A stretch of DNA of 64,000 bases from Escherichia coli O127:H6 str. E2348/69. GTDB taxonomy: Bacteria > Pseudomonadota > Gammaproteobacteria > Enterobacterales > Enterobacteriaceae. The translations under genes and the position numbers were made by a program. The stretch lies in NCBI RefSeq assembly GCF_000026545.1, contig NC_011601.1; one strand, given 5' to 3'. Below are positions 56,011-63,980 of the stretch, piece by piece. A model generated the notes under the pieces. That model saw only the letters and a program-made list of their open reading frames with translations. It was not told the DNA's origin and did no database searches. Within the stretch, counting starts at the first letter, position 1, and each line of letters starts with the position of its first letter.

Positions 56011-56063
56011 CGGCGGCAGAGCAGTCACGGAGTAAAACTGATACCGCCAAACGTCACCAGAAA
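56011..56063 (-). ncRNA. dicF: DicF small RNA (ftsZ translation inhibitor)
   Basis: Minus strand reads TTTCTGGTGACGTTTGGCGGTATCAGTTTTACTCCGTGACTGCTCTGCCGCCG then a T-run, matching recalled DicF. Confidence 0.85.
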
Positions 56064-57279: not shown

Positions 57280-57381
57280 GTTCTTACGCCTCGGGCTGGC
57301 TACTTAACCCCTGACCACTGCCTGGTAACTCGAAGTATTGCCCTGCATTCTGTGGGGCGGGGTGGGTTGGTATGAAAAGAA

Positions 57382-57424
57382 GGATACCCATAGGTATTTA
57401 AAAAGTAAATACCTATGGGTAAAT
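57382..57424. promoter_or_regulatory. Pair of TACC-N4-GGTA dyads (candidate OL-type operator and/or repressor-gene terminator)
   Basis: TACCCATAGGTA (57385-96) and its reverse complement TACCTATGGGTA (57410-21), separated by AAAAAGT. Confidence 0.5.
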
Positions 57425-57463
57425 TTTTGCGGTGTCTTAACTGGTGACTAGTTGTTTGGTGAG

Positions 57464-57883
57464 CTATGATGCGTTTTGTGCTTTCTTTTTACGGATTTCT
57501 TCGTAGATCATATTGTAATACTGTTTTTTCTCTTCAAGAGTTTTTAATAATTTATCCGCTTCACTTTCTGGCAGTTCGTCTAAGAGATCTAAAAAAATAC
57601 GTTGTCGTGGCGTTAGAACCCTTGTTTCATAACTGGAGGCTGTGTTCGTTGATGATGAAACGATACCATCCATCCATCCCCGGGGTAACCCAAAGGACTC
57701 TTCGATAATCTCCACCATATCATCAGCGATCCGTTTTTTTCCCTTTTTCCCCTCTGGGTACAACATTCTTGATACATAAGAAGGCTCGCGCCCGATCTTT
57801 CTGGCCACGTTAACCGCTTTACCATCGCATTTCTCATCACGAATTTTGATGAGTTGCTGTCGTCTAAATTCATATTTGTCCAT
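57464..57883 (-). CDS. Putative prophage repressor (short HTH protein in cI position)
   Basis: 139 aa, HTH-like segment AVNVARKIGREPSYVSRM, divergent from Cro-like gene. Confidence 0.55.
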   Translation of the reverse strand: MDKYEFRRQQLIKIRDEKCDGKAVNVARKIGREPSYVSRMLYPEGKKGKKRIADDMVEIIEESFGLPRGWMDGIVSSSTNTASSYETRVLTPRQRIFLDLLDELPESEADKLLKTLEEKKQYYNMIYEEIRKKKAQNAS

Positions 57884-57902
57884 AGGTAAATAATAGATGC
57901 GA

Positions 57903-57955
57903 TTACCGCAAGGTAAACAACCTGTGGGTATTGGTTTTTGTTTACCTGCGGGTAT
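57903..57955. promoter_or_regulatory. Divergent promoter/operator region with two TACC-N4-GGTA dyads
   Basis: TTACCGCAAGGTAA (57903-16) and TTACCTGCGGGTAT (57942-55) between repressor and Cro-like gene. Confidence 0.55.
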
Positions 57956-57983
57956 TCTTTGCTGTGTTTACTAAGGAGTAGCT

Positions 57984-58265
57984 ATGGAAGAATTAAGAAT
58001 ATTTCTCAATTCTCTTTCGTCAGATGAACAGCGTATGTTTGCATGCGAGTGTGGTACCAGCATCGGTTATCTAAGAAAGGCATTGAGTAAAGGTCAAGTG
58101 TTAGGGGCATCGTTATGTGTCCTTATTGAGCGAGCCAGTAATGGTGAAGTTACACGTCAGCAACTAAGGCCTTTTGATTGGATGAATATTTGGCCCGAGC
58201 TGGAAGATACCAAAACGTTAACACAACCACTTTCTAGGAGCTTGATTCATGAAAATCAAGCATGA
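57984..58265 (+). CDS. Cro/YdaS-like HTH regulator
   Basis: 93 aa; motif ...GEVTRQQLRPFDW resembles YdaS-family Cro-like proteins. Confidence 0.6.
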   Translation: MEELRIFLNSLSSDEQRMFACECGTSIGYLRKALSKGQVLGASLCVLIERASNGEVTRQQLRPFDWMNIWPELEDTKTLTQPLSRSLIHENQA

Positions 58266-58674
58266 ACACATCCGCATGGCGATGAATGTCTGGGCGCATC
58301 CGGACGGCGAAAAAGTGCCGGCTGCGAAAATTACCAAAGCGTATTTCGAGCTGGGAATGACGTTCCCGGAACTGTATGACGACAGCCATCCGGAAGCCCT
58401 GGCCCGTAATACCCAGAAAATTTTCCGTTGGCTGGATAAAGACACCCCTGATGCTGTTGAAAAAATGCAGGCTCTGTTACCGGCGATCGAAAAGGCGATG
58501 CCGCCTTTGCTGGTGGCCCGTATGCGCAGCCACAGTTCTGAATATTACCGTGAGATCGTCGAACGGAGGGATCGGCTGGTGAAGGATGTCGATGATTTTG
58601 TTGCGTCAGCGGTTGTTTTGTATGACCAGATGAATCGCGGCGGCCCGGCAGGGAATGCTGTGGTGATGCACTAA
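58249..58674 (+). CDS. YdaT-like (CII-position) prophage regulator
   Basis: 141 aa beginning MKIKHEHI as in YdaT family; overlaps Cro-like gene 3' end. Confidence 0.6.
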   Translation: MKIKHEHIRMAMNVWAHPDGEKVPAAKITKAYFELGMTFPELYDDSHPEALARNTQKIFRWLDKDTPDAVEKMQALLPAIEKAMPPLLVARMRSHSSEYYREIVERRDRLVKDVDDFVASAVVLYDQMNRGGPAGNAVVMH

Positions 58675-63478: not shown

Positions 63479-63824
63479 TAACACTTCCTTAATTTTCCCT
63501 TAACAATTTAGGGTGCTAAACTTTTTTGCGCAGTTTACATAAAAAAATAGTGCGTACGCAAAAACTATCTAACATGATGAGCTTTAACCGGGAAATTTGT
63601 ATATGTTGTGAGCATAAAGTTGGCTGAGAAATCTAAAACGGGTAGAATGACTGCGGGTGCTTGAGGCTATCTGTCTCAGGCATGAACACCAAAAGGCAGA
63701 TAGAGAAAAGCCCCAGTTAACATTACGCGTCCGGCAAGACGCTTAACATTAATCTGAGGCCATATCTATGCTCTACACACGTAGGTTAGCCTCTTACGTG
63801 CCGAAAGGCAAGGAGAAGCAGGCT

Positions 63825-63980
63825 ATGAAGCAGCAAAAGGCGATGTTAATCGCCCTGATCGTCATCTGTTTAACCGTCATAATGACGGCACTGGTAACGA
63901 GGAAAGACCTCTGCGAGGTACGAATCCGAACCGGCCAGACGGAGGTCGCTGTCTTCACAGCTTACGAACCTGAGGAGTAA
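63825..63980 (+). CDS. hokD: Hok/Gef-family type I toxin (HokD/RelF-like)
   Basis: 51 aa MKQQKAMLIALIVICLTVIMTALVTRKDLCEVRIRTGQTEVAVFTAYEPEE; in-frame upstream extension from 63768 (mok-like). Confidence 0.9.
   Translation: MKQQKAMLIALIVICLTVIMTALVTRKDLCEVRIRTGQTEVAVFTAYEPEE

Follow-up and report, generated by a model that had tools for sequence, protein, structure and literature searches.

We analyzed the immunity region of a lambdoid prophage of Escherichia coli O127:H6 str. E2348/69, contained in a stretch of 64,000 nucleotides (hereafter, the window), and in particular a short palindromic element, TACC-N4-GGTA, that flanks the gene of a 139-amino-acid repressor. These dyads are very probably the operators of a lambda-style lysis/lysogeny switch in this nleA-carrying prophage, with the consensus TTACC-YRYR-GGTAA (Y, pyrimidine; R, purine). 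An initial annotation had proposed them as candidate left (OL) and right (OR) operators, and this reading is supported by their confinement to the flanks of the repressor gene, by their conserved offsets from it, by their association with the helix-turn-helix (HTH) domain of the repressor and by the coincidence of the OL pair with an annotated putative leftward promoter (PL) in the phage mEp043. The prophage is inserted beside ompW and its left end corresponds to the final 12.5 kb of the window.

All four 12-mers of the initial annotation are present in the sequence. The predicted left operators, promoter-proximal OL1 (TACCCATAGGTA, 57385..57396) and distal OL2 (TACCTATGGGTA, 57410..57421), lie downstream of the repressor gene, and the predicted right operators OR3 (TACCGCAAGGTA, 57904..57915) and OR1 (TACCTGCGGGTA, 57943..57954) lie between the repressor gene and a divergent Cro-like gene. 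The repressor gene (57464..57883, minus strand) stands alone between the two clusters, as had been claimed, being the sole open reading frame (ORF) there. These are the only exact matches in the window and all fall inside 570 bp around the repressor gene, against a mean of 0.39 matches expected for the whole window from dinucleotide shuffles; the Poisson chance of at least four dyads in 570 bp is about 6e-12. The exact dyad is absent from the 51 kb of host chromosome within the window, and a search through the complete 50-kb prophage gave no additional exact copy. Between OR3 and OR1 lies a further predicted site, OR2 (AACCTGTGGGTA, 57919..57930), which has one mismatch and makes OR tripartite; the count of two sites between the repressor and Cro-like genes in the initial annotation has to be raised to three. 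Dyads with one mismatch number 20 in the window as against 12 expected by chance, and without the five switch sites the rest are scattered at about background. A doubtful weak site with two mismatches (TGTCCATAGGTA, 57877..57888) is found over the repressor start codon; it was not counted as an operator because it is unconserved in relatives and partly forced by the ATG-GAC coding sequence.

For the comparison with related prophages, 20 genomic loci encoding relatives of the N-terminal domain of the repressor were collected, one of which (L002) was excluded because it represents the E. coli phage itself. The contig of L002, labelled "MAG: Collinsella sp.", encodes an identical E. coli prophage repressor and immunity region and is almost certainly a binning contaminant. 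The remaining 19 loci belong to Yersinia, Edwardsiella, Klebsiella, Pantoea, Brenneria, Atlantibacter, Aeromonas, Arsenophonus, Izhakiella, Ferrovum and a Hydrogenophilaceae genome. In these loci (148 kb) there are 62 exact dyads where 2.3 are expected, and in all 19 they occur solely on either side of the repressor gene: 32 are located between -80 and -20 from the repressor ATG, 30 follow its stop codon within 2 kb, and there are none elsewhere. The upstream dyads start at -72/-73, -47/-48 and -32/-33 from the repressor ATG, and the downstream ones form a pair spaced 24-26 bp, which lies 43-1863 bp from the repressor stop codon. The arms are invariant, with about 2 bits per position, and the centre drifts, with 0-1 bit, which is the pattern expected of a dyad contacted by protein. 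OR2 is imperfect in most loci, reading TACC-N4-GGTT on the repressor strand in 13 of the 20. As for individual loci, the four from Klebsiella (L006 and L009-L011) have no OR2, with TTTGCTATATTTT in its place, and retain the OR1, OR3 and OL dyads; the Izhakiella locus (L021) has a perfect site at the OR2 position and a degraded OR1.

The 139-amino-acid repressor is composed of an N-terminal HTH domain (residues 1-72), a disordered linker (77-87) and a helical, DicA-like C-terminal domain (about 86-136). In the AlphaFold model the N-terminal domain is a confident four-helix fold (predicted local distance difference test, pLDDT, above 90 for residues 1-72), in which helices 23-30 and 34-40 form the HTH, followed by the helical tail; the recognition helix, 34-40, is PSYVSRM. 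Foldseek matches this domain to HTHs of the lambda-repressor/XRE type, for example those of C.Esp1396I, HigA, the lambda cI N-terminal domain (1lli) and the TP901-1 CI N-terminal domain. Pfam gives no match for the repressor, and a PDB sequence search returned only non-significant matches, such as the ADAR Z-alpha domain (E 0.08); the idea of a winged helix was dropped when the fold search gave an XRE-type HTH. The DicA family profile NF007257 aligns residues 86-136 to DicA positions 81-131 (E 1.9e-5), and the whole protein scores 24.5 bits against a family cut-off of 101 bits, and so stays outside the DicA family. The first 72 residues or so recur at 54-82% identity in many LexA-family repressors of about 225 amino acids, in Enterobacterales and beyond. 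An S24 peptidase domain (PF00717), which many of the relatives sharing the N-terminal domain carry, was not found in the 139-amino-acid protein.

The same N-terminal domain is thus combined in some proteins with a DicA-like tail and in others with one of several S24 peptidase domains, and the dyads are kept in both cases, whichever S24 domain is present. Five loci without a Cro-family gene within 4 kb (L006, L009, L010 and L011 from Klebsiella, L021 from Izhakiella) still carry them; in these the repressor domain may serve another type of element or switch. Mannheimia phage 587AP2, whose repressor is 45% identical and has the helix EPSYVARMLY, carries the same three OR sites and the OL pair, and Xanthomonas phage Rb1, with the helix EPSYLARLLY, carries exact dyads; no such dyad was found in Edwardsiella phage EPP-1, in which the helix is changed to EPTQISRII. 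These comparisons support an association in which the dyad follows the N-terminal HTH domain of the repressor, not its C-terminal domain, and is lost where the recognition helix differs. As a side observation, some E. coli variants of the repressor (P0010, P0019) start in an alternative frame (MNLDDSNSSKFVM...) and return to that of the repressor beyond the HTH, and an ORF at 57613-57873 (minus strand) of the window can be compared with them; they look like frameshifted, DNA-binding-dead alleles that retain the C-terminal domain.

The genes of the prophage are found in the order int, xis, exonuclease, ydfD, dicB, the small RNA DicF, two small ORFs, repressor, divergent Cro-like gene, ydaT, replication genes and Q. 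A promoter like the repressor-maintenance promoter (PRM) of lambda is found at 57890..57917 (minus strand; -35 TTTACC at 57917..57912, 16-nucleotide spacer, -10 TATTAT at 57895..57890), with a score of 9/12 in the promoter scan. Its predicted start is the A of the repressor ATG at 57883, so that the repressor messenger RNA (mRNA) would be leaderless; in all 20 related loci a -10-like hexamer ends 6-7 nucleotides before the repressor ATG and there is no Shine-Dalgarno sequence. Leaderless mRNA has been reported for lambda cI and for paaR2 (PMC8630535). A candidate rightward promoter (PR) can be read at 57931..57958 (plus strand; -35 TTGGTT at 57931-57936, 16-nucleotide spacer, -10 TATTCT at 57953-57958), which would start at about 57965 and drive the Cro-like gene, ydaT and the replication genes. 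A candidate PL can be read at 57381..57409 (minus strand; -35 TTTACT at 57409..57404, 17-nucleotide spacer, -10 TATCCT at 57386..57381), with a predicted start at about 57374; it would drive DUF1391, a 137-amino-acid ORF, DicF, dicB, ydfD, exonuclease, xis and int. Relatives have strong promoter hexamers at both positions, TTGACT/G-16/17-TAAACT at that of PR and, for example, TTGACT-17-TAATCT in L019 at that of PL.

The predicted operators are placed on these promoters as in a lambdoid switch, in which sites overlap the divergent PR and PRM and an outward PL. OR1 lies in the spacer of the candidate PR and overlaps its -10, with its centre at -16.5 from the predicted PR start and -65.5 from the PRM start; OR2, centred at -41.5 from the PRM start, abuts the PR -35; OR3, centred at -26.5, is inside the -35 and spacer of PRM. 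The candidate PL mirrors PR, with OL2 (centre about -41.5 from the predicted PL start), then the -35, then OL1 (about -16.5) overlapping the -10, and this inverted similarity of OL and OR was also detected in a repeat search. The mirror arrangement is conserved, since in relatives the PL -35 comes directly after OL2 (GGTAttgac) and a -10-like hexamer after OL1. In lambda the centres of OR1, OR2 and OR3 are at about -66, -42 and -19 from the PRM start, close to the first two values found here (-65.5 and -41.5) and different from the third (-26.5). A conserved A-tract (caaaaa) is also present directly upstream of OL2 on the PL strand, at 57422-57432 of the window and, among L003-L020, in most loci; it might serve PL as an UP element or provide, on the opposite strand, the T-run of a reverse-facing terminator (a hairpin and then AATTTTTGCG).

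A further comparison is provided by mEp043 (Aguilavirus mEp043), a lambdoid coliphage that has been isolated, which has the same Cro family and whose cI has an N-terminal domain 76% identical to that of the E2348/69 repressor, with an identical recognition segment, REPSYVSRMLYPEGK. Five dyads are found in mEp043 at the same offsets (-72, -47 and -32, and the OL pair), and its OL pair coincides with the putative PL annotated by the depositor upstream of gene N. The rest of the mEp043 system is different: its cI has 228 amino acids with an S24 peptidase domain, and so is presumably inducible through RecA, cI and OL are separated by a small ORF, and the phage uses N, a lambda-type CII and other replication genes. 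From the shared recognition segment and sites, the E2348/69 repressor and mEp043 probably have the same immunity specificity. The comparison of the mEp043 wild type with the c-1 record, by which the clear-plaque mutation might have been located, was uninformative, as the 7.2-kb immunity regions are identical.

We propose that dimers of the 139-amino-acid repressor bind the dyads through the N-terminal HTH (helix 34-40, PSYVSRM). When OR1 and OR2 are occupied, the spacer and -10 of PR would be covered and its -35 abutted, so that the Cro-like gene, ydaT and replication would be silenced; occupancy of OL1 and OL2 would cover the mirror-image PL and silence the DUF1391-DicF-dicB-exonuclease-xis-int operon. 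From OR2, centred at -41.5 relative to the start of PRM, the repressor might activate its own synthesis, as lambda CI does when bound at that position. At high concentration the repressor would also fill OR3, inside PRM, and so stop its own synthesis; the Cro-like protein, which is expected to share the operators with the repressor, would bind OR3 in preference to the other sites. The Cro-like gene (57984..58265, plus strand) encodes 93 amino acids with an HTH of the YdaS/Cro type, has a weak Pfam YdaS match, belongs to PHROG 35 and matches the PDB Cro proteins 8c7k and 8co2 (E 1e-10); a homologue divergent from the repressor is present in most related loci.

A second level of control may be contained in the centre of the sites. 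The centre is YRYR in 58 of 74 OR1, OR2, OL1 and OL2 sites (78%) and in 1 of 22 OR3 sites (5%), a difference with a Fisher p of 3e-10, which is optimistic because the sites are phylogenetically related. The window follows this rule, since OR3 has perfect arms and a centre, TTGC, that is not YRYR. In phage 434 the central, non-contacted base pairs set operator affinity, an effect reportedly established by the experiments of Koudelka and colleagues in 1987. As in 434, the outer contacted arms are conserved here and the centre differs between the strong sites and OR3; the proteins, however, are not close relatives, and the effect of the centre, which is experimental in 434, is deduced here from sequence statistics. 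By this analogy the affinity of OR3 is probably lowered by its non-contacted centre through indirect readout, which would place it below the other sites in the order of occupancy. If this is true, the OR3 centre would be an example from nature, shared across the family, of indirect readout setting the affinity of an operator.

Several points weigh against the dyads being operators of a lambda-style switch, or against reading their evidence at face value. The related loci are of common ancestry, so that the dyad counts and the Fisher test overstate the independence of the sites. The E2348/69 PR (7/12) and PL (8/12) are below the threshold of the promoter scan. A third OL site was not found within one mismatch, in the window or in relatives, and OL therefore has two sites where lambdoid clusters have three. 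The centres of OR2 and OR3 are separated by 15 bp, compared with 23 bp in lambda, so OR3 may behave differently. No antirepressor is annotated in the 50-kb prophage, whose repressor is also without a cleavage domain. Finally, no description of these operators, or of binding sites of the repressor or of its relatives including mEp043, was found in the open-access literature.

An alternative function is suggested by the structure of the downstream pair. The initial annotation had noted that OL1 and OL2 form a large hairpin, and this hairpin is real: OL1, OL2 and their inner flanks (57385..57421) form a perfect 16-bp stem (57385-57400 paired with 57406-57421) with a 5-nucleotide loop, a folding free energy of -22.5 kcal/mol as RNA and a z-score of -7.6 with respect to shuffles. 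The pair might then be primarily an intrinsic terminator of the repressor transcript, its likeness to the OR sites being secondary. The hairpin lies 43 nucleotides past the repressor stop codon with no other hairpin in between, and a permissive scan flags it on both strands, with the tail TCCTTCTTTT on the minus strand, that of the repressor transcript, and AATTTTTGCG on the other; moreover, a terminator there would be useful because read-through from PRM would enter the dicF/dicB operon. On the other hand, only 5 of the 16 pairs of the stem are GC and the T-tail is interrupted, and any two adjacent near-palindromes yield a hairpin automatically. The perfect stem depends on a single substitution, at 57414: among 13 copies encoding an identical repressor, E2348/69 alone has it, the stem of the remaining E. 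coli copies being interrupted by one mismatch. The folding energy of the OL pair in relatives is weaker, -6 to -18 kcal/mol, and the centres there are not mutually complementary. The pair lies 43-1863 bp from the repressor gene in these loci, often at over 1 kb and often with other genes in between, and promoter hexamers pointing away from the repressor gene are always present at it. For these reasons it is unlikely that the pair is primarily a terminator. The weaker version, in which the pair has a terminator role in addition to its operator role, is tenable and still the less probable case; the suggestion in the initial annotation that the hairpin could terminate the repressor gene is plausible and no more, the perfect stem being confined to E2348/69 and the hairpin weaker in relatives.

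If the dyads are protein-binding operators, the protein in question need not be the 139-amino-acid repressor: it could be the Cro-like protein alone, or YdaT, a host protein or some other factor. It is true that a Cro-like gene accompanies the dyads in most loci and that its HTH segment (CGTSIGYLRKA) is conserved as well as that of the repressor; the five loci lacking a Cro-family gene, however, keep the dyads. YdaT has a different recognition sequence, TTGATT-N6-AATCAA, defined experimentally (PMC9986795), to which a site of the window, TTGATTCATGAAAATCAA (58242..58259), corresponds exactly; it is separate from the dyads and covers the start codon of ydaT, where the Cro-like gene ends. A host factor is opposed by the absence of the dyad from the host part of the window, and binding without the repressor is, on the whole, very improbable. 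One might also imagine that a short AT-rich palindrome had clustered by chance in intergenic DNA that is itself AT-rich, since the motif fixes just 8 bases and 1 of 100 window shuffles reached four matches, though scattered. This reading is refuted by the tight clustering of the four matches, by the near-background number of one-mismatch dyads elsewhere in the window and above all by the excess in related loci, none of it off the repressor flanks, and it deserves practically no credence.

The operators of a lambda-style switch remain the preferred explanation of the dyads, and the switch can be placed among known systems. With lambda it shares the repressor gene between two operator clusters, the tripartite OR between divergent PRM and PR, the leaderless repressor mRNA (here predicted) and the OL/PL that mirrors OR/PR. 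It differs in the operator, which is a 12-14-bp TTACC-N4-GGTAA here and a 17-bp site in lambda, in the number of OL sites (two rather than three), in the DicA-like helical tail that takes the place of the S24 self-cleavage domain, in YdaT, which fills the role of CII, and in the absence of rexAB-like cargo between the repressor gene and OL.

The gene order of the E2348/69 prophage is collinear with the dicA/dicC/dicB region of Qin in E. coli K-12, whose order is Cro-like gene, divergent repressor, DUF1391 (ydfA-like), DicF, dicB, ydfD, exonuclease and int, and residues 86-136 of the repressor resemble the DicA C-terminus. The DNA-binding domain is, in contrast, unrelated to that of DicA, and therefore the operators are different from those of Qin. 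By analogy the repressor presumably has a function like that in Qin, that is, to hold the division inhibitors DicF and DicB silent. The DicF small RNA (Rfam RF00039, 72.5 bits) is located at 56011-56062 on the minus strand, upstream of dicB in the predicted PL operon; since both are within this operon, binding of the repressor at OL is predicted to silence two inhibitors of cell division, the task of DicA in Qin.

Prophage CP-933P of E. coli O157:H7, with its PaaR2/YdaS/YdaT module, resembles the E2348/69 prophage in having YdaT and, where the Cro-like gene ends, its recognition site. In both, the switch further has a CI-like repressor that lacks a cleavage domain, together with a Cro-like protein and an OL/PL analogue. 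The analogue has been shown experimentally in CP-933P, where the repressor operon carries the paaA2-parE2 toxin-antitoxin pair (PMC8630535). The CP-933P operators, bound by PaaR2 and YdaS, are 18-bp palindromes with the consensus GTTTAGTAA, four of them at OR (PMC8630535); this consensus differs from TACC-N4-GGTA, and they were rejected as a direct precedent. Over residues 2-141 the YdaT of the window is identical to the crystallised CP-933P protein (8bt1) and, given also its exact site, the CII-like module is the characterised one, joined to a repressor/Cro/operator module of a different type. A mosaic junction can be seen at about 58266-58289: leftward the window is about identical to L002, and directly right of the YdaT site the two have different ydaT alleles.

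The best whole-chain structural match of the repressor model is Rep of Salmonella phage SPC32H (5d50, in complex with the antirepressor Ant; E 4e-4), which also has an HTH N-terminal domain and a helical oligomerisation domain and no peptidase domain; identity, however, is 17-22% and TM-scores are below 0.5. Short repressors of the SPC32H Rep, Gifsy and phage 186 CI/Tum type are inactivated by LexA-controlled antirepressors (PMC7380047). A scan of the 50-kb prophage for LexA boxes gave one exact CTGT-N8-ACAG, inside nleH1-2, and none that was convincing.

The type of switch is already known as lambdoid, and the working principle of such switches is unchanged by these results. What is new is the predicted operator consensus, its conserved layout and a single DNA-binding domain without a Pfam family that is found on cleavable and non-cleavable control domains with the same putative operators. 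A concrete map of five sites and three promoters, all predicted, is thus available for a repressor that is annotated as a hypothetical protein. In E2348/69 the switch controls a prophage that carries, in its complete 50 kb, the type III effector genes nleA and nleH1-2, as well as the division inhibitors DicF and DicB. With the operators known, one can predict which phages belong to one immunity group, where prophages and incoming phages would show cross-immunity, and which prophages are still inducible. Since the non-cleavable repressor shares its recognition helix and operator consensus with SOS-cleavable CIs of active phages such as mEp043, a resident, possibly defective, prophage could confer immunity. 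It is conceivable, and we suggest it tentatively, that the cell would in this way gain SOS-proof immunity to all incoming phages of this immunity group and that co-resident prophages of the group would be silenced during DNA damage; this would amount to cross-talk between repressors that share one DNA-binding domain and differ in their control domains.

The immunity region is found in 821 of 5,426 complete E. coli genomes (about 15%), among them many O157:H7 strains, and the exact 139-amino-acid protein is listed in 18,489 blocks of a public collection. In the 13 E. coli copies encoding an identical repressor, nearly all variation of the immunity region falls in regulatory bases (57931-57936, 57949 and 57414), and the 420 bp of coding sequence have one synonymous change. 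The PR -35 is TTGACT in most of these copies; O157:H7 and L030 have TTGGCT, and E2348/69 alone has TTGGTT; the centres of OR1 and OL2 vary, and one copy has a change in an OL2 arm. This distribution suggests selection on promoter and operator strength, with perhaps a weakened lytic promoter in E2348/69. Further to the right, inside the prophage, the sok antitoxin RNA of a hok/sok (hokD) module is located at 63655-63830 on the plus strand (Rfam RF01794, 117 bits).

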